Virus record (IMG/VR): IMGVR_UViG_2721755720_000003
Length of the DNA: 50,985 bases
Source: a virus
Taxonomy: Duplodnaviria; Heunggongvirae; Uroviricota; Caudoviricetes
Direction: 5' to 3' (one strand)
Part shown: positions 24,339 through 39,037 of the stretch, piece by piece
Numbering within the stretch: the first letter of the stretch is position 1
Layout: the number at the start of each line of letters is the position of its first letter
Made by a program: the position numbers and the translations under genes
Notes under the pieces: model-generated
Told to the model about the DNA's origin: nothing
What the model saw: only the letters and a program-made list of their open reading frames with translations
Database searches by the model: none

Positions 24339-25649
24339 TTAAATCCGAAGTGATGTGACTCTTCCGGTCGGTTTGACAATAGGGAATTGCTTAACGATGA
24401 AATAACCTCCGGCATCATTCGGGTGATCATTGCCAGATTTTTTATCAGGCTCCCCCTTCTCATCCCAGACCTGTTGCTCCAGAGATTCGGCATATAACGG
24501 GCAACGCTTCACATTAACTTTATAGCGACGCTCACCATTGGCATTGCAGAACATTGCATTCATTGAGTTAACGCGATCTTTTACTGGCGGGTTCGAGCTG
24601 TTCACCACAACGTTAAAACCAGCCTGCTTAAGCTGGGCTATATCCGTCGTACTTGCGTTACTTGATTTTCTGGAATCCCCGGAAGCATCTGGATAAATAT
24701 AAATTTCCCTCACTTTCCGGTAATCATTCCCATCATACAGCCAGAAGCGTTCTTTAATGATGCGGATCATATCCGGCGTATCGTAGGCATTGATGATTTC
24801 AGTTACCGCACATGGAAGCCCCAAACGCAGCACATGGACGATTCCCGCCATCTTTCCAACGTTAAAATCCATCCCAATATAAATCGGCTCCCCTGGCTGC
24901 TCCACTTCTTCGCAATTATTCAGTTTCCGGTCAAACTGATGGTAAACAGTACCACTTGTCAGGTTAGTAAACTGTCCTCGAAGATAGGCTTTAATCAGCT
25001 CTGGAGGGTATGATTCAAGAAGCGAAGGAATGTAATCTGCTGGCAGGTTCTTTTCATTATCGAAAGTAGATGCCTGCACCAGACCATACAGTGAGGCCAG
25101 CTCTGTTTTTTCACGCACGGCTTTAACAAACTGCTCGTAGACAAATTTGAATCCTTCCGGCGTGGTTGTAACGTCAATACCGTTGCGAAGTCCATCAATC
25201 TTATAACGCATACGTGCAATTATCTTGCGCCACGCCGTTCTGGCTTTTTCCTTCGGCAAAATGTCCAGTTCATCCACCAACGCATTACCAATTTTGAAAC
25301 CGACGATCGTTTGTGGCTTCTCCATCGATCTGCAGATAGTGGTTCCCCGATACTGGCGTCCGTAATAAAAGTGAACCTCTTTATTTCCCTCATTAATTTT
25401 TACGTTCAATCCCCAGTCAGCAGCAACTTCTTCCACTGTAGGGTAAAAAATATCGCGAATTTGGGGATACGTTGGCGCAAAATATCCCTGATTTATACCT
25501 GGATGCTCCCAAATCCCCTTGCATATGCCGCCACACCCAACCCATGTTTTGCCCGAGCCAAAACCAGCAATATAGGCTTTAAATTTATGGGGCATTGAAA
25601 GAAATCGCGCCTGAGGCACATTAAGCGTCGGAGAGATCATCTTCATCAC
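24339..25649 (-). CDS. terL: Terminase large subunit
   Basis: Walker A GFGSGKT near the N-terminus; C-terminal nuclease-like acidic residues; 436 aa. Confidence 0.9.
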   Translation of the reverse strand: MMKMISPTLNVPQARFLSMPHKFKAYIAGFGSGKTWVGCGGICKGIWEHPGINQGYFAPTYPQIRDIFYPTVEEVAADWGLNVKINEGNKEVHFYYGRQYRGTTICRSMEKPQTIVGFKIGNALVDELDILPKEKARTAWRKIIARMRYKIDGLRNGIDVTTTPEGFKFVYEQFVKAVREKTELASLYGLVQASTFDNEKNLPADYIPSLLESYPPELIKAYLRGQFTNLTSGTVYHQFDRKLNNCEEVEQPGEPIYIGMDFNVGKMAGIVHVLRLGLPCAVTEIINAYDTPDMIRIIKERFWLYDGNDYRKVREIYIYPDASGDSRKSSNASTTDIAQLKQAGFNVVVNSSNPPVKDRVNSMNAMFCNANGERRYKVNVKRCPLYAESLEQQVWDEKGEPDKKSGNDHPNDAGGYFIVKQFPIVKPTGRVTSLRI

Positions 25650-26715
25650 TCCTTACTCTGGCATCAACCACATTAATATTGATCGCCACAGGCTGGGGAT
25701 GTTCATTATCTTCCACCGTTTCGATCTCTTTGCGCAGCTTCTGGTTTTCCATTCTGCGCCGTTCAATTTCCAGTTCCTGTAGCCGTTTATCTGCACATAA
25801 AGCCCCGCCAGCAGAAAACAAACGCAACAATTCACGCCGGGCGGCAGCCTTATCCTCCAGCAGGATCTCAACGCCGAATTTTCCGAATTTTGCCCCTGCA
25901 TATAATTGCCGCGCATCCCCATCAAGCAGAGTGGTATCAGCCATATAAAGCTGTCCCGTTCCCTCACCGCAGCACTTCGGGCAGTCCGGATTGGGTATGG
26001 CGTTATCAACAAAGCCGAGGCCTCCATATTCCGGTTCGGGTTTGCCATCTCTGGAAGCCTGCGCCGCTGCCTTGTCGAATTCTGCTATATCGCGCCACTG
26101 GTAGAGATGATTCTCGCCCCAGCAATAACGGCAGTTAACACGGCGAAATTGTGCAAGCTGATTGGGGTCGGCCAGGACAATAGCCATCAACTGACTCACT
26201 AGTAAATCCAGGTCTGCGGTATAGCGTTTCTGGTACTGATTGCGGAAGTAGCTGATAGCGCGAAAAACCCTGGCATTTCTAAGCATACGACTGGCGTTGC
26301 TGTTAGCTGTCGCACCTTGCCCCTCATAACCGGCTAGTCGGTACGCCTCTGTCGGCTTTTTACCCTGAGCAACAAGCATCGCAAACTTAGCCTGCTGGTC
26401 AGAAATGCCGAATTCATCGGGACAGAACGAAAATTCCTCCGCGTCGCCCTCATTCAGGCCCGCATCGAATACTGGCTTTTTTTCCTGAGATTTTTCGTTC
26501 CGCTTTTGTGCAGTCTGCGCAGATTTTTTCTGCGCACTTTTTTGCGCAGTTTTGCACATTTCTGTCTGCGCATTTTTCGGAGTTTTTTTGATGTAACGAC
26601 GGGCTGTTGCGTAATTCAGTCCCCTTGCTTCACACCATGCCACCGGAGATATACCGGAGCGGGTGTATTCAGCAATATACTCCTGCTGCAACGCCCCCCA
26701 GTCCGGTCTGCTCAT
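25621..26715 (-). CDS. terS: Terminase small subunit (long, PacA-like), N-terminal HTH
   Basis: Directly upstream of terL; N-terminal HTH-like segment; Lys/Gln-rich region encoded by TGCGCA repeats. Confidence 0.6.
   Translation of the reverse strand: MSRPDWGALQQEYIAEYTRSGISPVAWCEARGLNYATARRYIKKTPKNAQTEMCKTAQKSAQKKSAQTAQKRNEKSQEKKPVFDAGLNEGDAEEFSFCPDEFGISDQQAKFAMLVAQGKKPTEAYRLAGYEGQGATANSNASRMLRNARVFRAISYFRNQYQKRYTADLDLLVSQLMAIVLADPNQLAQFRRVNCRYCWGENHLYQWRDIAEFDKAAAQASRDGKPEPEYGGLGFVDNAIPNPDCPKCCGEGTGQLYMADTTLLDGDARQLYAGAKFGKFGVEILLEDKAAARRELLRLFSAGGALCADKRLQELEIERRRMENQKLRKEIETVEDNEHPQPVAININVVDARVRSDEDDLSDA
26506..26575. repeat. Cluster of TGCGCA hexamers each followed by a T-run, inside terS; candidate pac site
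   Basis: TGCGCA at ~26514, 26531, 26543 and 26569, plus TGCACA variants, all within ~70 bp. Confidence 0.4.
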
Positions 26716-26718
26716 CAG

Positions 26719-26970
26719 TTAGTCCTGATTTTTATCCACCCTGAGTAGTTCGCGCAGAGCAAAGGCATCCCCTTTTCTGGCAAGCTTAAACAATGCCGCT
26801 CGTAACTCGGCTTCACCTTTCGCTCTGCCCTTACGGATGGCCGCATAAAAATCTGTCATTGCTTCCCGATTTTCTTTCAGTCGGTTCAGATCAACATCCA
26901 GAACGTCAGCGATTTGTTGTGCAGTCATCCGGCACGCTGCCAGAGACTCGACTTTCGAATACGGAATCAT
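26719..26970 (-). CDS. Small hypothetical protein upstream of terS
   Basis: 83 aa with a GGGGGTGA RBS; stop overlaps the terS start region. Confidence 0.5.
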   Translation of the reverse strand: MIPYSKVESLAACRMTAQQIADVLDVDLNRLKENREAMTDFYAAIRKGRAKGEAELRAALFKLARKGDAFALRELLRVDKNQD

Positions 26971-27838
26971 TTGTCACCCCCATTGATATGCAGGGTGTCT
27001 TCTTCCTGTATTTTTCGTGAAGGATTTTTACTGCAGCGTTGTTCCAGGTGACCTGATGGTGAATGCGTTTATGGCTGGCACCCATCAGTGAGATTTTTAC
27101 GCACGACGGCGCATACATGACGGAGTAAAAACTTTTAACGTAGGTTCCGGAATCCAGATACAGCTCGGTCATTCCGCCGCTGTTTTTCTGCGTCTGTTTC
27201 TGCCCTAACTGGACAGCACCGATCGTCATAAACAATTCACCACAGCGACCGAGATTCGTGTACGTATTCACATCCTCGTTAATGCGCCCCATGAATGAGA
27301 ACGGTCGATCAACCGAACAGATAAAGCTGTTCATTGCCTTGCGTTTCACCCACGAAGCATGGCCGCCATTGTCACCAAGAAAATCCCCGCCCTGCGACAT
27401 AGCGATGGAAAGAGCAGGTATTGATTCGTAGTACGCCAGCATTTCAGAAAGGATCGCATCCAGTTTCCTTATCGGAAAATAGGCCTGGTCATAGTTGCGA
27501 TCCACCCGAAACTGGAACTCGTGATAATCATCATCGAGCTGAATGAAGTATTTACACCCGACCAGTTTTGCCAGGTCGAAACAGGCATTACGGGCGTAAA
27601 AAATTGAGCGGCGGTCACAGAAATTATCGGCTTCGTCAAAACGACTGGCGATATCGGCTTTGGAAAACACCAGCACCTGTTCACCAAATTCAGCCATGTA
27701 CTGATTCCGTGTCTTATCTTCATCATCAACAACGATAAAAATTTTCCCGGTATAGCCAGCACGACGCAACGTCCGGTAAGTCAGAACTTTGTCCGGTCGC
27801 CCGTGAGTCAGAATAAAGGCGCAAAAATCATCACGCAT
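26906..27838 (-). CDS. Putative GT-A-like nucleotide-sugar transferase (DxD motif), function unknown
   Basis: 310 aa; N-terminal beta-strand FILTHGRP…IFIVVDDED and QLDDDY motif; ATG overlaps the ParB-like stop (ATGCGTGA). Confidence 0.45.
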   Translation of the reverse strand: MRDDFCAFILTHGRPDKVLTYRTLRRAGYTGKIFIVVDDEDKTRNQYMAEFGEQVLVFSKADIASRFDEADNFCDRRSIFYARNACFDLAKLVGCKYFIQLDDDYHEFQFRVDRNYDQAYFPIRKLDAILSEMLAYYESIPALSIAMSQGGDFLGDNGGHASWVKRKAMNSFICSVDRPFSFMGRINEDVNTYTNLGRCGELFMTIGAVQLGQKQTQKNSGGMTELYLDSGTYVKSFYSVMYAPSCVKISLMGASHKRIHHQVTWNNAAVKILHEKYRKKTPCISMGVTNDSVFESRVSGSVPDDCTTNR

Positions 27839-28622
27839 ATTCCTCCTCCTCACCACCATGCATGATCTCCACCATGCGCTGCGTCATCCGGACAAATCCA
27901 TTTTCAATAGCCTGCTGATAATCAATGATCACCAGCGCCGACTCCTCGAAAAAACACTGAATTTCAGAGGGGGCGTGAGCGTAATAGTCCGCAATTCTGC
28001 TGAAATTAAACACCGTGTGACGTTCTGCCGCACACAGGAGGAATTTCTCAATATCAGGCTCAAGGGACGCCGAACGTATCCGGCTGATCAGCTCCTGAGT
28101 TTTCGTATCGTCGTACAGTTCACTGATATCCGGTTTACCGCCCGACGGCTCATAAACAGGCGTATCAATTTTCGTCGTATACGGCTCCTCCTCATTTCCT
28201 GTACCGGGCAAAACATCCGTCAACAGTTCATCAATTTCTGTCGGGATGAAGCCTGTCAGGGAGACATCAAAATCAGCATTGATTAGGTCCGACAGCTCCA
28301 TCCGCAACAGATCTTCATCCCAGCCAGCATTCATCGGCAGGCGATTATCTGCCAGGCGGTACGCCTTTTTCTGCTCATCCGTCAGGCCAGACAGAACAAT
28401 GACCGGAACAGAATCCATTTTGAGCATTTCAGCCGCCATAACACGACCGTGACCCGCAATAATTTCGCCCTTTTCGTCAATCAGCACCGGATTAGTCCAG
28501 CCGAATTGCTTAATACTTTCTACCAGTTGTGCCACCTGCTCAGGGCTGTGCGTCCTGGCGTTGTGCGCATACGGTGACAATTCTTGTAATGGGCGATAGA
28601 CTATCTTTAATTTCTCGCTCAT
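27831..28622 (-). CDS. ParB-like nuclease domain protein (ParB/Srx N-terminal domain)
   Basis: 263 aa; N-terminal KIVYRPLQELSPYAHNARTH…IIAGHGRVMAA; I recall K-12 Rac ynaK as a short relative. Confidence 0.8.
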   Translation of the reverse strand: MSEKLKIVYRPLQELSPYAHNARTHSPEQVAQLVESIKQFGWTNPVLIDEKGEIIAGHGRVMAAEMLKMDSVPVIVLSGLTDEQKKAYRLADNRLPMNAGWDEDLLRMELSDLINADFDVSLTGFIPTEIDELLTDVLPGTGNEEEPYTTKIDTPVYEPSGGKPDISELYDDTKTQELISRIRSASLEPDIEKFLLCAAERHTVFNFSRIADYYAHAPSEIQCFFEESALVIIDYQQAIENGFVRMTQRMVEIMHGGEEEEYA

Positions 28623-28759
28623 ACAGCCTTGCTTTATGAATAAAACGCACCCCAGCAGCCAGTGCTACTGGGGACGGAGGGGTTGCTGGTAAAGTTAGGT
28701 ATTGGATCAATGAGTGAGTCAACATAATATTAAACTCACAATTATAAATCAGCCATATA

Positions 28760-30217
28760 TTAGGAGCGCCAAAAAAAACCTGAAAACAATATAATAACAG
28801 GATAAATTTCAAGGCGACCAAGAATCATAGCTATGCACATTAAACATTTTGCAATGTCATTAAGCACTCCGAATGACGATGCAGTAGCCCCAAAACCTAA
28901 TCCCATATTATTAATACATGCAGCCACTGTTGCAAATGATGTAAGAAAATCATATCCCATACCATTTAACACCAGTATAAAAAACACCGTGAAGAGAGTA
29001 TAAAGAAAAAAGAAACTCCATACAGACCTCATTACACGATCTGTAACTATCTTCCCTCCTACATTTACACTCAACAACGCTCTGGGATGAGAAAGCTGAT
29101 TTATCTCGTGTTTGCTTTGTTTGAAAAGTATAAGAAATCGAAGTGACTTAATTCCACCACAAGTTGAACCTATACATCCCCCAAAGAAACTTGACAACAG
29201 CAAAAACACTATCGTATGCGTGGGCCAACTTGCATAATCCTGCGTAGCTAAACCATTATCAGTGAGCATGGAGCTGGCAAGAAAAAACGAATGAATAAAA
29301 CTTCCATGCAAGTCATACATACCTATATGCCAGACCTGGAAAGAGGTAACAATGATCACCCCTAAGGCTATTAACAGAAAGAAACGAAGTTCAATATCTC
29401 TGATTAAAGGTTTTATCGTTTTCCTGCTAATAACAATATACCAAAGAGTGAAGTTGAAAGCCGATAGCAGGGAAAAAGAACCAGCCACCAGCTCAACCAA
29501 ATAGTTATTAAAATATCCGATACTCTCGCTATGAGTTGAGAAACCACCAAGCGAAACTGTGGAAATCCCGTGACAAATAGCATCAAACAAAGGCATTCCT
29601 GCAAGTCTATAACAGACAATACAAGCAATACCTAATAAAGAATAAGTTATCCACAGTGTCCGTGACGTATCGGCCAGGCGGGGAGTGAGTTTGTCATCCT
29701 TAAATGGCCCCGGCATTTCTGACTGATAAAGCTTTGCACCACCAATACCCAATAATGGCAATACAGCAACCGCCAGAACAATAACTCCTAAACCACCTAT
29801 AAAATTTAACTGTGACCGATAGTACAAATATGCCCGAGGTAATGAACTAACATCATCAATTACAGTTGCTCCTGTTGTTGTTATTCCAGAAACCCCTTCA
29901 AACAGAGCATCAATGAACGTTAAATTAAGTTCTGAGTCAATCCATAAAGGGAATGCACTAATAACAGAAAACAAAATCCAAAACATTACAATTATAATAA
30001 ACCCATCACGGGTACGTAATTGAATGCCAGATTTCTTAGTTGTATACCACGCTCCGCCACCAATGCAAAAAAATATAACGAAAGTTATAAAGAAAACGAA
30101 CAGGCTTTTTTCTTTATAAAACAATGCTACAACCATTGGTGGCAACATTGAAAGACTATAGAGCCAAACCAGGAACCCACACATATGAGTAACAACTCTT
30201 ACATGAGATGTATTCAT
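28760..30217 (-). CDS. trkG: TrkH/TrkG-family K+ uptake membrane protein
   Basis: 485 aa polytopic membrane protein recognised as Rac TrkG; AT-rich codon usage relative to neighbours. Confidence 0.9.
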   Translation of the reverse strand: MNTSHVRVVTHMCGFLVWLYSLSMLPPMVVALFYKEKSLFVFFITFVIFFCIGGGAWYTTKKSGIQLRTRDGFIIIVMFWILFSVISAFPLWIDSELNLTFIDALFEGVSGITTTGATVIDDVSSLPRAYLYYRSQLNFIGGLGVIVLAVAVLPLLGIGGAKLYQSEMPGPFKDDKLTPRLADTSRTLWITYSLLGIACIVCYRLAGMPLFDAICHGISTVSLGGFSTHSESIGYFNNYLVELVAGSFSLLSAFNFTLWYIVISRKTIKPLIRDIELRFFLLIALGVIIVTSFQVWHIGMYDLHGSFIHSFFLASSMLTDNGLATQDYASWPTHTIVFLLLSSFFGGCIGSTCGGIKSLRFLILFKQSKHEINQLSHPRALLSVNVGGKIVTDRVMRSVWSFFFLYTLFTVFFILVLNGMGYDFLTSFATVAACINNMGLGFGATASSFGVLNDIAKCLMCIAMILGRLEIYPVIILFSGFFWRS

Positions 30218-30354
30218 ATCTAAATATTCTTTCAATTATAACCACCTTGCTGCAATATTATGATTATACTGTATAAAATTTAACTCCTCTTAGATCTTAC
30301 TTCACTGTTCCTTATGAAACAATCATCAAAATGAATCATATTGTAGTTAAGATT

Positions 30355-31779: not shown

Positions 31780-32175
31780 CTAACCTCGCATGTCAAAGCC
31801 AGATTTCTGAAAATCTCTGTAGACTTCCGGATTGTTGAAGGCCGGAAATTTGGCTTTATGAGCTGCGGACTTTATCGCTTCGCAATAGGCTTTATCACCG
31901 TTACTGGTAGATATTTTTAACGCCGTGCCATCCTGAGAGAATTCCATATGCAACCTGCATTTTTTCCCTTTCCAGTTATGCGGCTCATCAAGTTTGGCAT
32001 TAATTGCAGCTCTGATTCCCCGCGCTTGCGCCCCCCATTCATCCTGATCATCCCAGCGTCCTGAACTGCAACTACCTGTAGCAGTAGTTTTGTGGCAATC
32101 TGAAGGGTGTAAAGGTGTGCATCCCGCAACAAAACCGACCCAAAAAGTCAACATAACGATTTTCTTTAATCCCAC
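31780..32175 (-). CDS. Outer-membrane lipoprotein with a TolA-domain-III-like C-terminal domain (paralog B)
   Basis: Signal peptide with lipobox VAGC; C-terminal …KKCRLHMEFSQDG…YCEAI…FPAFNNPEVYRDFQ… aligns with paralog A and with the TolA C-terminus. Confidence 0.6.
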   Translation of the reverse strand: MGLKKIVMLTFWVGFVAGCTPLHPSDCHKTTATGSCSSGRWDDQDEWGAQARGIRAAINAKLDEPHNWKGKKCRLHMEFSQDGTALKISTSNGDKAYCEAIKSAAHKAKFPAFNNPEVYRDFQKSGFDMRG

Positions 32176-32325: not shown

Positions 32326-32754
32326 TCAGGGTTTAAAATCCAGCACCCCATTTTGAAATACTTTATATACTTCCGGCGAAGGGGGGGCAGGTATATCAGC
32401 ATTCTTTATCGCATTCATCGCTTCACGACATAAATCGAGGTCTCCACTTTCTCTTTTAACCTCCAGTAGAAGGCCATTCGGGGCCATATGCATTCTCAGT
32501 GTACACTCTTTTCCTGAATACTTACTCGCATCCCCGAACTGTTTTTCGATGGCGCTCTTGATTTGATGGGCATACAGACGGATATCCTCACTAACATCAG
32601 AAGTACGTTCAGATGAACTCACATACTGTGTCTCTATTGCTTTATCGGAGTAATATGATGTACGGTCATGATAATTTGTCGATACAGCATCAGTGCACCC
32701 GATAATAATCCCACTAATAATCAACGTAAGAATTGATGCGCTACGAAAACCCAT
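32326..32754 (-). CDS. Outer-membrane lipoprotein with a TolA-domain-III-like C-terminal domain (paralog A)
   Basis: Lipobox IIGC; C-terminal YAHQIKSAIEKQFGDASKYSGKECTLRMHMAPNGLLLEVK…PEVYKVFQNGVLDFKP closely resembles the E. coli TolA C-terminus as recalled. Confidence 0.75.
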   Translation of the reverse strand: MGFRSASILTLIISGIIIGCTDAVSTNYHDRTSYYSDKAIETQYVSSSERTSDVSEDIRLYAHQIKSAIEKQFGDASKYSGKECTLRMHMAPNGLLLEVKRESGDLDLCREAMNAIKNADIPAPPSPEVYKVFQNGVLDFKP

Positions 32755-35643: not shown

Positions 35644-37908
35644 TTATACGGAAACTGGCACACGAGCAGGCAATGGATAGTGAGCCCAGTTATTAGCATT
35701 TAAAGCTCTTACGCCATCAGCATAAACTTGTGTGTTTCCATCTAATGATTTTAAAGTTACTACAATAGTTACAGGTAAAGGCTCCATTAAGGCCGGTTCA
35801 TTCGCTCTCAACGTTGTTTTAGCCTGAAGAGCCCAGTTACCCGAAGTAATTCCTTTATTAAATGCCTTGCGATGAATTTTTACTGGTGACCACTTTCCAC
35901 CATGCTCAATTTGAGCTCTCTCATATCCAGATTGACCGTTTTCTCCTTCCATAGGCACTTTTCCTTTTATAGTATTATTCTCAATTAAGCCAAAACTTAG
36001 CTCTACGTTCGCGCGAACATATTCACTGCCGGCATTAGGATTCAGTGGTGGTGCATATGCAGCAGTAATTACAATCTCACCTTTAAATTTTCCATTTTGA
36101 ATAAGTGCCGATGGTATGGGATAGTTTTCCTTTCTCCACCTCATCCCAGGAACCAAGAATGTTTGGAAAATCAGAGTAAACCTATCATCACTATCATATA
36201 AGGTCTCAATAACTTCATTAGGAATTCCCGCTCCCAAATAGCGTCTTTCACTTGGCGAGTAATCAGGAGAAGATAATTGAGCGGAATGAATTAATAATGC
36301 TTTAATCAATGATGGTGAAACATTAAAGTCTGAATTAGTGGCTATTCTCTGCCATGTATGCGCAGCTAAACTTGCCACAATTGGAGCAGCAAAACTAGTA
36401 CCAAAATTAGAGCAAAGCCTATTATCTGGCCCTACGACCTTTAAACTGCTTGCTCCTACATTCCAAGGTCTATGAACCCCACCGCCAGCATGGATTATAT
36501 CTGGCTTTGGAGTAAATACAGGCCCAGGGCCACGACGAGTATATGGTGTCGGTGTTCCAATTTCACTTAAAGCATCATTAGCTTCCATATGAGAAACTGA
36601 ACCAACTGTTAGTGCTCGGACTGACTCTCCAGGAGAGGAAATTAAATCAGCACCTCCAAGCGGTTCAGGATTTGGCCATGTACGTATAGGTTCATCTACA
36701 TAATTACCTGCAGCAACTACAAACAAAATACCAAATTTATCGCTGAGCCGATCTAACTCCATCGCAAAATCACTAAACGTCTGCTCATTACATGGTCCGC
36801 CTCCCAAAGACAAATTCCAGACTTTTATATCTGGTCTTTTATTTACAGCATCTGCTAGCCTCAGAATTAAATCTGATATATAAGATCCATTTTCATCTAA
36901 GGCACAAACATCATGGATTTTAGATTTTGTATCAGGAATCCATGGATGATTGTCATTTAAAAAATGAGCGCCTGATATCAATGAAGACACCATAGTCCCA
37001 TGTTCATAACTCGTATCAGGAGGAATTACGTATGTTTCCCTACTCACTACCCAAGGAGTAATTGTTGCCGCGATGGGGCTTACCCCAGTGTCAAATACAG
37101 CAACAATGGGTAATTCTTCTGATGGTACGGGAAAGCTATTTGTTTCAATGCCAACAGAATCACTTACACTAACCGGGAATGCTGAATATTTTGGTTCTGG
37201 AATTAACGTTCTTATACCCGGGTAATTAATGAGAATGTCTAATATATATCTATCATTTGGGGATAAATCCATTATCCTTAATAAGGGAAGACCACATTTT
37301 TGTCTAATCTCATCATATTTAACTCCGTGTTGTTCTAATATAGAAATAACGTTTTCATAGTTGTTGTAAGTTGCATCTTCACCTGTGTACTCAAATAGTC
37401 GTACAAGGATGTTTGATGATTCAAACAAACCATCAGTGCCTCCTGGAACCTTCCTATTCTCATCCCAAGGTTCAATGCGCTCAATCGCGCTTAGATTAGC
37501 CAAAATCGCTTTAATATTCCGATGTAAAATAACTGACTCTAATACGTCAAAACAGCCGGCATGAGCAGCAACCAACATTTCATCTATTTTGGCATGACCG
37601 GCATTTTGCAATCCAGCCTCTTGAGCAATTTTGTTCGGCCTATGCGTTTTGGCTATTCCCTGGTCTCTTAATTTGAAAACCAAAGTACCCAAGCTTCCAG
37701 GGTACTCTGAAAGTTTGGATTCTAAATAATGTTTACTGGTTGTTAAATTTCTTACTAGCCCTTGTCTATATTCGGCTGTTACATCAACCAATACCTTTGC
37801 CCCACCGCCAGCGTTTACTATTGCACCCAAGTCACTACTGGAAAAAGGGATTCTTAACATTGGGTTTGTAACTTTTGCGTTACTAAACTGTGTACCCCTT
37901 CTGCTCAT
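35644..37908 (-). CDS. Subtilisin-like S8 serine peptidase (IetS-like)
   Basis: 754 aa; catalytic triad motifs VAVFDTGV (Asp), HGTMVSS (His), GTSFAAPIVAS (Ser); overlaps the upstream ATPase gene. Confidence 0.85.
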   Translation of the reverse strand: MSRRGTQFSNAKVTNPMLRIPFSSSDLGAIVNAGGGAKVLVDVTAEYRQGLVRNLTTSKHYLESKLSEYPGSLGTLVFKLRDQGIAKTHRPNKIAQEAGLQNAGHAKIDEMLVAAHAGCFDVLESVILHRNIKAILANLSAIERIEPWDENRKVPGGTDGLFESSNILVRLFEYTGEDATYNNYENVISILEQHGVKYDEIRQKCGLPLLRIMDLSPNDRYILDILINYPGIRTLIPEPKYSAFPVSVSDSVGIETNSFPVPSEELPIVAVFDTGVSPIAATITPWVVSRETYVIPPDTSYEHGTMVSSLISGAHFLNDNHPWIPDTKSKIHDVCALDENGSYISDLILRLADAVNKRPDIKVWNLSLGGGPCNEQTFSDFAMELDRLSDKFGILFVVAAGNYVDEPIRTWPNPEPLGGADLISSPGESVRALTVGSVSHMEANDALSEIGTPTPYTRRGPGPVFTPKPDIIHAGGGVHRPWNVGASSLKVVGPDNRLCSNFGTSFAAPIVASLAAHTWQRIATNSDFNVSPSLIKALLIHSAQLSSPDYSPSERRYLGAGIPNEVIETLYDSDDRFTLIFQTFLVPGMRWRKENYPIPSALIQNGKFKGEIVITAAYAPPLNPNAGSEYVRANVELSFGLIENNTIKGKVPMEGENGQSGYERAQIEHGGKWSPVKIHRKAFNKGITSGNWALQAKTTLRANEPALMEPLPVTIVVTLKSLDGNTQVYADGVRALNANNWAHYPLPARVPVSV

Positions 37909-39037
37909 ATGCTCCTGACTCCTTCAGAATGTTTGAAATTACTCTTGATGTAAGTTTGTACAAATTAGCAAGAACTCTGATAGAAAATAATTTTTTATCT
38001 TTAGAACGTAACCAACGAATTTCATCTTCGTAAGTGCTTAAATTTACACCTTCCATAAGCGATTGAGCAAGATACAAACGCCTATACAATTTATGGTGAT
38101 TTATCACACTTGCACCTTCAATAACTGCATCCCTACGTGCATCCAAGCTCACCTGTTCAATTATTGCTCCGGATAATCCTTCCGATTTTCTTGATAAATC
38201 ACTTAAATCTAGATCGCTACATATCATATTCTTTAAACGATTTTTCCAAATTAACTCTCTCTGATGTATGTCAGGCAGAGGCATTGGAATTCTGAAGCTA
38301 AATCGCCTCCAGATTGCAGGATCCAGAAGTTGCTCATGGTTAGTTGAGGCAATAATTACCGTATCCTCTGATGCCGCATCCATATTCTGCAATAGTGAAA
38401 TGACAACTCGCTGAAGCTCACCTATATCTCTCTCATTACCTCTTGCTCCAGCTAAAGCATCAAATTCGTCTAAAAAAAGCACTGATGGCCTCTGCATTAC
38501 ATAATCGAAAACCTGTCTAAGATTTTTGCTGGTTTGTCCCAATAAACTACTAATCAAAGTATCGCAACGCACTGTAAGAAGTGGAAAATCTAAGCGGGTA
38601 GCGATGTACTTAGATAACATAGTCTTACCTGTTCCTGGCTTTCCATACACGAGCATACGACTCGGCAATGCTGCATCAGCTTTAACAAACTCATCATAAC
38701 GTTGAACATTAGTGATAAACTCTTCAACACGGGTACTGATTGCTGCAGGCAGAAAAATCTCTGAACTGTCTAATTTAGGATAACTGACATCAACAGTGTT
38801 GAGTCGACTATCAATATCTACCGGTAATGAGCCCAGAGATATCCCACCTCCAGCCCTTTGAGCTCCTGCCAACGCCTGGGGAGCTCTAAGCAACCTTTCT
38901 CTTATCATTCTGGCTTGCTTGACCTCCCCTTTTTGTTCGAGCTTATCTGCCAGCAACCCAGCATAATTACTAGCCATCGAAGCATTTGCCTTTGTTGCAC
39001 CTTCAATGATTTTTAACACTTCTGATAAATAATCCAT
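37883..39037 (-). CDS. AAA+ ATPase (classic clade; IetA-like)
   Basis: 384 aa; Walker A GKPGTGKT, Walker B VLFLDEFD, sensor-1 ASTNH, Arg finger region PAIWRRF; GGGAG RBS. Confidence 0.85.
   Translation of the reverse strand: MDYLSEVLKIIEGATKANASMASNYAGLLADKLEQKGEVKQARMIRERLLRAPQALAGAQRAGGGISLGSLPVDIDSRLNTVDVSYPKLDSSEIFLPAAISTRVEEFITNVQRYDEFVKADAALPSRMLVYGKPGTGKTMLSKYIATRLDFPLLTVRCDTLISSLLGQTSKNLRQVFDYVMQRPSVLFLDEFDALAGARGNERDIGELQRVVISLLQNMDAASEDTVIIASTNHEQLLDPAIWRRFSFRIPMPLPDIHQRELIWKNRLKNMICSDLDLSDLSRKSEGLSGAIIEQVSLDARRDAVIEGASVINHHKLYRRLYLAQSLMEGVNLSTYEDEIRWLRSKDKKLFSIRVLANLYKLTSRVISNILKESGAYEQKGYTV

Follow-up and report, generated by a model that had tools for sequence, protein, structure and literature searches.

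The 50,985-nucleotide stretch of DNA analysed here (IMG/VR record IMGVR_UViG_2721755720_000003, called the window in what follows) is, on the basis of Pfam scans and RefSeq annotation, a complete and intact Rac-type lambdoid prophage of Escherichia coli. On its minus strand, two overlapping genes stand directly upstream of the terminase genes, in the same close-packed operon: one encodes a full-length YnaK-type protein of 263 amino acids (aa) with a ParB-like N-terminal domain (28622..27831), here called the partner, and the other a 310-aa GT-A glycosyltransferase of the TAGT family (27838..26906). Our tentative reading, to which we give somewhat less than an even chance, is that the two proteins make up a DNA glycosyltransferase of two subunits, expressed late, by which progeny DNA is marked.

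Specifically, the basic TAGT protein would be the catalytic subunit, a GT-A enzyme that needs a divalent metal and a nucleoside diphosphate (NDP)-sugar, and the acidic YnaK-type protein would be its obligatory adaptor or activator. The C-terminal module of the partner, probably together with a linear motif of the form Y[TS]xK..PxYxP, would engage the TAGT protein, and the ParB/Srx N-domain, where present, may act as an accessory switch dependent on a nucleoside triphosphate (NTP); in related phage systems, such a domain serves to render double-stranded DNA accessible for base modification. Expression of the pair would come from the Q-dependent late transcript, on which it follows the lysis genes and trkG and immediately precedes terS and terL; because of this position, the enzyme would appear when progeny DNA nears packaging. 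Sugar would be put on the concatemeric progeny DNA shortly before it is packaged, and this decoration would protect the DNA from nucleases in the next host. Complex formation, the DNA target, the anti-restriction or protective role and the late timing are steps that we infer from the observations described below.

Coupling and conservation of the gene pair

The original prediction, which left the strand of the two genes unstated, had proposed that the partner gene stops inside the start of the next gene and that the two are translationally coupled, and the junction agrees with this. Read on the minus strand (27831..27849), it is GGAGGAGGAA-T-ATGCGTGA: a strong Shine-Dalgarno sequence, GGAGGAGGAA (27849..27840), lies one base ahead of the ATG of the TAGT gene (27838..27836), and the TGA of the partner (27833..27831) falls inside codons 2-3 of that gene. 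The overlap ATGCGTGA thus occupies 27838..27831 and is preceded by the Shine-Dalgarno GGAGGAGG. The longest open reading frame (ORF) of the second gene begins at an upstream ATG and spans 317 aa (27859..26906); the start was set at the ATG 27838..27836, giving 310 aa, on the basis of homologue alignments and of the way RefSeq annotates E. coli SE11, where the region is identical.

Relatives of the pair were examined in three metagenomic contexts, in 69 species-dereplicated genomic loci (from Proteobacteria, Bacteroidota, Firmicutes, Desulfobacterota, Actinobacteriota and others) and in cultured phages. A partner homologue stands directly upstream of the TAGT gene, on the same strand, at 68 of 71 loci, the three exceptions being contig-edge or truncated cases. 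The stop-inside-start overlap is kept at 64 of these 68 loci, its length being 8 nt at 26 loci and 11 nt at 27, and is more than chance. When all genes within eight positions on either side were clustered for 72 loci, no third conserved gene emerged; the next commonest cluster is a packaging gene found at 21 loci, and the recurrent neighbour families are all packaging genes, none of them present beyond 21 loci.

Within E. coli, the history of the pair is one of both retention and loss. In K-12 MG1655, trkG is followed by ynaK (87 aa, ParB-like) and then by ydaY, which represents a deletion that starts within the ParB gene and extends to the tail region. This bears out the earlier claim that the Rac prophage of K-12 keeps only a short ynaK and a pseudogene, the intact pair having been lost there, and because the deletion begins inside the partner gene, the 263-aa protein is the intact form of YnaK. 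RefSeq labels the partner “ynaK: ParB/Srx family N-terminal domain-containing protein” and the second gene simply “hypothetical protein”. The loss in K-12, and the fact that, of the E. coli genomes that match at all, about half hold only part of the 2-kb stretch, could be taken to mean that the pair is functionless or decaying cargo, a selfish or remnant element. We strongly disfavour this and consider it scarcely credible: the whole stretch is kept in 866 of 5426 complete E. coli genomes (16%), in most cases with at least 99% identity; the overlap between the genes is conserved; and TAGT identity stays at ~40–57% from E. coli to Bacteroidota, Firmicutes, Actinobacteria and a haloarchaeal virus, with the catalytic motifs invariant.

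The places that the pair occupies in other viruses follow two patterns. In the first, it stands ahead of terminases of at least five families (Terminase_6N, TerL_ATPase, GpA, Terminase_3 and others), which are followed by portals and capsids, and the genes upstream of it are unrelated between loci. As ORF1-ORF2, the pair opens the gene order of Lactobacillus phage c5, where it starts 90 nt from the cos end, and Haloarcula virus HHTV-2, an archaeal tailed virus, carries a partner/TAGT pair ~3 kb upstream of the large terminase (L156, 6196-7858), its TAGT protein being 43% identical to that of E. coli. In the second pattern, versions with a short partner, consisting of its C-terminal part only, sit in replisome clusters. 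The orders seen there are Pol A, adaptor, TAGT and beta clamp; primase-helicase, adaptor and TAGT; 5′–3′ exonuclease, adaptor, TAGT and UDP-glucose dehydrogenase; and clamp, single-stranded DNA-binding protein, exonuclease, primase, adaptor, TAGT and helicase. Because the pair either heads a packaging operon or sits among replisome genes, action on new phage DNA fits both patterns.

Domains and motifs of the two proteins

The second protein had been read as a nucleotide-sugar transferase with a GT-A-like fold, on the strength of the peptides FILTHGRP, IFIVVDDED and QLDDDY. All three are present in the TAGT translation, and the assignment holds: the 310-aa protein scores 121.1 bits in the Pfam family TAGT (TET-associated glycosyltransferase, PF20691), whose cut-off is 27.5 (E=7.6e-35), over model positions 4-205 of 205, and structure prediction gave GT-A folds. 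The family was reportedly defined by Iyer et al. 2013 (NAR). There is also a match to phrog_842 (E=1.1e-103), which is named after the T-even enzyme, and at least 8000 relatives are found in database searches, with UniRef naming the E. coli protein “GREB1-related protein”. Across 26 homologues, reaching to ~60% identity, the invariant residues are G13-R14, D38/D41, D102-D103-D104-Y105 and N187-E188-D189-V190; D102-D103-D104 (27535..27527, minus strand) and N187-E188-D189 (27280..27272, minus strand) are of catalytic type. Together they form the set R..DDD..ED, with R14 lying in HGR14 and with Val, not Tyr or Phe, after ED; the set R...DDD...ED[Y/F] has been defined for the trypanosome base-J glucosyltransferase (JGT) and for phage GT-A DNA glycosyltransferases (preprint 10.1101/2023.12.21.572611).

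The AlphaFold2 (AF2) model of the TAGT protein has a mean predicted local distance difference test score (pLDDT) of 71.7 and a predicted template-modelling score (pTM) of 0.72. Its top matches in the PDB are all GT-A enzymes (ColGalT1, SpsA, TarS, TarP, GnT-I and glycogenin), and the best among viral models are TAGT-domain proteins, with template-modelling (TM) scores up to 0.83; no member of the family has a solved structure. The protein is basic, with an isoelectric point (pI) of 8.6 once its tail is left out, against a clade median of 8.8. That tail, the last ~28 residues (283-310) of the E. coli protein, is of low confidence, non-conserved and absent in other genera. No membrane segments are present, and conversion of O-antigen or teichoic acid was rejected as a function, given this lack and the location of the pair in a late operon that is not integrase-adjacent; hosts with unrelated envelopes, including an archaeon, also contradict it. 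In PADLOC, no defence system matched the TAGT protein, and the partner was matched only via the ParB N-domain of a methyltransferase model. The null result for TAGT says little, because PADLOC covers host defence and not phage counter-defence.

The partner matches phrog_620 over its full length (E=8.5e-91), and its first part (residues 1-135; 28218..28622, minus strand) is a ParB/Srx N-domain of the CTPase fold, as the original prediction had it. Pfam PF02195 scores 28.9 bits over residues 23-90, above the cut-off of 26.3; PDB profiles match Noc and ParB (E ~2e-5), with GERR aligned to GHGR; and the predicted fold resembles the CTPase domains of Noc, ParB and KorB, Foldseek retrieving Noc, ParB, KorB and PadC at probability 1.00 and also matching Srx and SerK. 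Box II reads IIAGHGR, in which G57, G59 and R60 are invariant, as is N93 of box III. Relative to the canonical GERR, residues G57-H58-G59-R60 put Gly in place of the first Arg and His in place of the hydrolytic Glu while keeping the last Arg; as far as the sequence can tell, binding of an NTP by this domain is plausible. The word “nuclease” in the original prediction proved to be a historical name only: no indication of such activity was found, and no feature of the partner supports it.

The earlier association of ParB-type N-domains with DNA-modifying enzymes is sound for this subtype, which forms the N-terminus of phage DNA methyltransferases (phrog_498, E=1e-50; PADLOC MTase_II, E=2e-38; PMC12704722), the match spanning residues ~3-144 of the partner. 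A classical partition ParB, on the other hand, was ruled out. The partner shares the N-domain fold, the box II Arg and the box III Asn with partition ParB, Noc and KorB, but unlike them it lacks a helix-turn-helix (HTH), carries His for the Glu of GERR and is very acidic (pI 4.5 and net charge about -25, with a median pI of 4.7 across 52 homologues). The Pfam scan gave no HTH family match in the partner and no ParA among the scanned ORFs of the window, and the score against the partition-ParB model TIGR00180 (38.5 bits) is below its cut-off of 58.45.

Beyond the N-domain, residues 136-158 of the partner form a linker with pLDDT below 50 in the AF2 model and predicted to be disordered. In this acidic linker sits the conserved linear motif Y148-T-T-K-I-D-T-P-V-Y-E-P159 (28146..28181, minus strand), whose residues Y148, T149, K151, P155, Y157 and P159 are invariant in close homologues and whose general form is Y[TS]xK..PxYxP; both Tyr residues are invariant as far as the Vibrio, Lactobacillus and Haloarcula virus versions. 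It is followed by a C-terminal helical module of ~100 aa (residues 165-263; 27834..28130, minus strand), for which alignment A4 shows R-H, E and D to be invariant. Profile-based typing found the ParB-N domain and the C-terminal part fused at 53 loci and encoded by two adjacent ORFs at 4, and at ~7 loci and in ~190-kb Vibrio phages the C-terminal part alone (~130 aa) precedes the TAGT gene, with the ParB-N domain absent. By these sequence profiles, the constant element accompanying TAGT is the C-terminal module with the motif, not the ParB N-domain.

No Pfam family and no relative of solved structure was found for the C-terminal module. An exhaustive search returned 1189 cluster representatives, nearly all of them stand-alone or at the C-terminus of 250-300-aa proteins; no fusion to TAGT occurs among these 1189, the longer ones being ParB-N proteins with N-terminal extensions. 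Two weaker resemblances were also seen. Seven of 14 module sequences gave a sub-threshold match to Pfam Phage_Gene47 (mycobacteriophage L5 gp47-like; E ~0.03, 14 bits against a cut-off of 27). An invariant TAGT segment, GTYVKSFYSVMYAP (residues 232-244), is loosely like the partner motif; in BLAST against the homologue P0278 (TYSRKIEAPIYEP) it gave E=4.5, which is not significant, and the likeness might be chance, or strand or peptide mimicry.

The acceptor and the competing explanations

TAGT proteins are textbook second-step enzymes, which need a hydroxymethyl base or a sugar already present on one. The characterised acceptors are 5-hydroxymethyluracil (5hmU) for JGT and 5-hydroxymethylcytosine (5hmC) for phage GT-A enzymes (10.1101/2023.12.21.572611), and, for the T2/T6 enzyme, the glucose of alpha-glucosyl-5hmC (PMC13216743, PMC13390438). 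The precedent for DNA as the target is thus uniform among viruses and kinetoplastids, all of whose characterised TAGTs glycosylate DNA (PMC13216743, PMC13390438, 10.1101/2023.12.21.572611). A precedent also exists for the proposed role of the partner: ParB homologues that combine an N-terminal NTP-binding domain with a C-terminal domain, and have no DNA-binding domain, activate phage T-dioxygenases specifically on double-stranded DNA (PMC13229309). To judge from composition, the pairing of a basic TAGT protein with an acidic partner supports a two-subunit enzyme as well, and some of the neighbourhoods described below, with a sugar-nucleotide dehydrogenase (L151), TAGT paralogues (L155) or a C5-cytosine DNA methyltransferase (L134 and, by cluster membership, L138), resemble clusters for sugar hypermodification of DNA.

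Several observations weigh against a DNA glycosyltransferase of this kind, the most serious being the missing first step, which the original prediction did not address. Pfam scans of the non-structural ORFs of the window, together with the RefSeq annotation of the SE11 prophage for the structural region, revealed no TET/JBP dioxygenase, no thymidylate-synthase-like hydroxymethylase and no other base-modifying enzyme; likewise, the window contains no hmC pathway, no alpha-glucosyltransferase and no DNA polymerase. No TET/JBP enzyme or other source of hydroxymethyl-pyrimidine lies within 10 kb on either side in the three metagenomic contexts, according to precomputed Pfam annotation, and the 72 loci hold no recurrent third gene that could supply an acceptor. 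Nor is a DNA polymerase, hydroxymethylase or dioxygenase annotated in the complete genomes of two small Lactobacillus phages, c5 (31.8 kb) and phi jlb1 (38.3 kb); c5 has no unannotated ORF larger than ~210 aa, and the only large unannotated ORF of phi jlb1 (722 aa) is in the tail region. To our knowledge, the grooves of canonical DNA offer no hydroxymethyl or sugar hydroxyl. Furthermore, the partner is very acidic and without an HTH, and is for these reasons unlikely to bind DNA in the manner of a classical ParB; the AF2 models are of moderate quality only (pLDDT 72 for TAGT and 69 for the partner); and literature searches on ParB with TAGT and on ynaK found no experiment on this clade. Contigs that carry glycosyltransferases in the absence of 5mYOX or ThyS (~65%) have been judged less clearly DNA-hypermodifying (Pyle et al.), and GREB1, a TAGT-domain protein, is reported to glycosylate a protein (PMC7968844). 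The partner/TAGT module is a well-defined part of the unexplained ~65% class of Pyle et al.

A conventional explanation of the missing step would be that the enzyme is an ordinary glycosyltransferase for hydroxymethylated bases, the substrate coming from an unrecognised, divergent dioxygenase of the same genome or from the hmC or hmU DNA of a co-infecting phage, in competition or exclusion. We regard this as distinctly unlikely. It is true that the R..DDD..ED motifs are the same as those of glycosyltransferases acting on such bases, that thousands of phage 5mYOX enzymes are missed by the Pfam TET_JBP model, and that in L134 and L140 the gene immediately ahead of the partner is an unannotated ORF of 330 aa. 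Nonetheless, the whole prophage is in the window, and its ORFs of dioxygenase size are explained by Pfam or RefSeq, none as a dioxygenase; c5 offers no unannotated ORF of more than ~210 aa; and no third family occurs in more than 21 of the 72 loci, the recurrent ones being packaging genes. In addition, sugar on the hydroxymethyl bases of an invader would normally favour the invader. When the unannotated 300-355-aa upstream proteins of L134, L138, L140 and L122 were checked as candidate dioxygenases, those with matches in L134, L138 and L122 were primase-like, and no identifying match was obtained for the 330-aa protein that L134 and L140 share (cluster c88) or for three further ORFs from L140 and L122.

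For our main reading, the breadth of the module narrows the choice of acceptor. Because a conserved, self-sufficient two-gene module spans unrelated hosts and replication strategies, both donor and acceptor must be available everywhere, and, since the module is self-sufficient and crosses hosts, the acceptor cannot be a phage-specific hypermodified base. The pair might glycosylate an acceptor in unmodified DNA, either a base N or O or the backbone, or some other universal macromolecule, by chemistry that has not been described; in this specific form we think the idea improbable, although not negligibly so.

The main rival to a DNA target holds that TAGT O-glycosylates a protein, either its own partner or a replication or packaging protein brought to it by the partner. 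We consider this unlikely, although it does away with the missing-acceptor problem and has a precedent in the TAGT domain of GREB1, reported to O-GlcNAcylate ER-alpha (PMC7968844). If the partner were the acceptor, the invariant Tyr or Thr of Y[TS]xK..PxYxP could carry the sugar, in a glycogenin-like or GREB1-like manner: two invariant Tyr and a Thr/Ser stand in an otherwise variable, disordered, acidic linker, the constant part of the partner is the C-terminal module with this motif and not ParB-N, and coupled translation suits an enzyme made together with a stoichiometric substrate or chaperone. A conserved, aromatic-rich motif is equally suited to be a docking peptide, however, and self-glycosylation has no obvious purpose. 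Likewise, the adjoining terminase, portal and replisome families vary between phages, and because these neighbours change from phage to phage, no common protein target is apparent besides the partner itself; the characterised viral TAGTs, moreover, all act on DNA.

A third possibility is that the substrate is a small, universal metabolite or nucleotide, such as an immune signalling nucleotide, an NAD-derived molecule or a deoxynucleoside triphosphate, with the ParB/Srx domain acting as a nucleotide-binding or phosphotransfer subunit and the module serving counter-defence or manipulation of the nucleotide pool. A self-sufficient module distributed across bacteria and archaea does demand a universal substrate; the ParB/Srx fold includes small-molecule enzymes, with Srx and SerK among the fold matches of the partner; and ParB-fold proteins bind CTP, ATP or GTP (PMC12704722). 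We nevertheless give it only a slim chance. The ~7 loci and the Vibrio phages that are without ParB-N retain the C-terminal module and TAGT, and because of this the nucleotide-binding domain is not essential to the chemistry; a late-operon position is poor timing for counter-defence, and there is no TAGT precedent for such a substrate.

Prophage setting, known relatives and significance

Read leftwards from its right end, the prophage carries integrase, recET, kilR, sieB, repressors, ydaTUV and a Q-like antiterminator, followed by holin, lysozyme, Rz, trkG, the partner/TAGT pair, a small ORF, terS, terL and portal; its leftmost part has a capsid of P22 type and tail genes like those of lambda. 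Starting with the Q-like gene, this order is also the direction of minus-strand late transcription. The small ORF (26719..26970, minus strand) is given 69 aa in RefSeq and reaches 83 aa at its longest; it overlaps the last part of the TAGT gene (the 3′ end of that gene) and partially matches phrog_309 “terminase small subunit” (E=8e-23), whereas the SE11 annotation calls it hypothetical. Next come the two terminase subunits, the small one of 364 aa and the large one of 436 aa (24339..26715, minus strand; Terminase_2, Terminase_6N and Terminase_6C). On the other side (28650-30235, minus strand), trkG is a low-GC moron whose insertion separates the lysis cassette from the partner gene, with a GC content of 0.38-0.41 against 0.48-0.50 for the pair, which is the same as that of the packaging genes. 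Between trkG and the partner gene, just ahead of the partner start, lies a terminator-like hairpin (28673..28650, minus strand), a consensus match only, with a 10-bp stem of which 7 pairs are G-C and the tail TGCGTTTTAT.

Other cargo of the prophage was noted in passing. Its early region contains an IetAS anti-phage defence pair (35644-39037, minus strand), consisting of IetS, an S8 subtilase of 754 aa (PADLOC E=8.7e-302), and IetA, an AAA ATPase of 384 aa (E=8.9e-143). SE11 has TPR and DUF262 proteins and an IS3 element in their stead, and because other genes are carried there, the site is a variable slot for defence cargo. Upstream of the lysis genes are two separate ORFs with TolA C-terminal domains (31780-32175 and 32326-32754, minus strand), which may be decoys for Tol-dependent phages or colicins.

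Some loci carry additional genes around the pair. In L155 (8442-11819), the partner is followed by two tandem TAGT paralogues, a radical-SAM protein and terS, and L146 (9285-11799) has a protein in the same cluster as that radical-SAM protein. In L147 (17-3267), a TAGT domain occurs in a 477-aa protein, which is followed by a second adaptor and TAGT. In L151 (9610-13104), the gene immediately after TAGT encodes a UDP-glucose/GDP-mannose dehydrogenase, and the next one a 323-aa protein; the dehydrogenase hints that the donor sugar may be customisable, for example to a uronic acid. One representative of a neighbour cluster matched an NAD-dependent epimerase/dehydratase in the batch scan. L134, L138 and L140 form one group of gut and rumen phages with extra genes upstream of the partner: in L134 (5289-8900) these include genes for a primase-like protein and a C5-cytosine DNA methyltransferase, L138 (5104-7885) has members of the same two clusters, and the unannotated 330-aa c88 protein precedes the partner in L134 and in L140 (7892-8887).

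It is informative to compare the module with systems already described. With the TAGT DNA glycosyltransferases of phages and kinetoplastids (T2/T6, the 5mYOX-linked GT-A enzymes and JGT) the window enzyme shares PF20691, the GT-A fold and R..DDD..ED, but it differs in having an obligate coupled partner and in a prophage that makes no hmC, hmU or glucosyl-hmC. It belongs to a separate clade: homologues in T4-like Aeromonas phages are 22-24% identical, the T2/T6 enzymes were not found at E<=1e-3 in searches from the window protein, and a T-even-type enzyme compared with the window model gave a TM of ~0.55 at 10% identity. The T2/T6 beta-glucosyl-HMC-alpha-glucosyltransferase needs alpha-glucosyl-5hmC, 5-hydroxymethyl-dCTP (hmdCTP) and an alpha-glucosyltransferase; the window encodes neither an hmC pathway nor an alpha-glucosyltransferase. 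Because the similarity to T4-like proteins is remote and no hmC pathway is present, the label “beta-glucosyl-HMC-alpha-glucosyltransferase” given by PHROG and RefSeq to some members of the clade is a transferred name.

The closest parallel for the partner, compared by description, is found in the ParB-dependent T-dioxygenases (5mYOX176/ParB176; O’Toole et al., PNAS 2026, PMC13229309), whose ParB protein likewise joins an N-terminal nucleotide-binding domain to a C-terminal one, lacks a domain for binding DNA and is encoded beside its enzyme. The 5mYOX/ParB pairs are often near terminase genes (PMC13229309). The enzyme in that case is a dioxygenase, in contrast to the glycosyltransferase of the window; ParB-dependent 5mYOX enzymes are linked to kinases, amidotransferases and amino-acid:DNA transferases, whereas glycosyltransferases are linked to the ParB-independent class (PMC13229309). 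Fusions of ParB-N to DNA methyltransferases (phrog_498, PADLOC MTase_II PDLC03229; Kaljevic et al. 2025, PMC12704722) have the same N-domain subtype and are enriched in prophages (PMC12704722); the window enzyme, in contrast, is a separate polypeptide of another class and would, to judge from sequence, be joined via the C-terminal module and not by fusion. The animal protein GREB1 has a glycosyltransferase domain of the same family, but it is a large eukaryotic multidomain protein with no ParB partner.

The gene families themselves, and the theme of a ParB domain beside a modifying enzyme, are already known. Our literature searches found no published account of the coupled module, of the C-terminal adaptor domain or of independence from hydroxymethyl bases, although Iyer et al. 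2013, which was outside the search, may mention the neighbourhood. What gives the pair its interest is that a conserved TAGT clade travels with one partner and no first-step enzyme. Identifying its acceptor would reveal either a new DNA modification, with relevance to restriction evasion, sequencing artefacts and enzyme tools, or a non-DNA viral branch of what has been considered a family of DNA glycosyltransferases. The question is directly testable in E. coli, because the module is present in 16% of complete genomes and in an inducible Rac-type prophage. By analogy, the C-terminal module would be a new adaptor domain, and the role of ParB-like activators would extend from dioxygenases to glycosyltransferases. 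If the self-sufficient pair does prove to use undescribed chemistry, that chemistry would be delivered by this new adaptor domain and shared by viruses of Proteobacteria, Firmicutes, Bacteroidota, Actinobacteria and haloarchaea.

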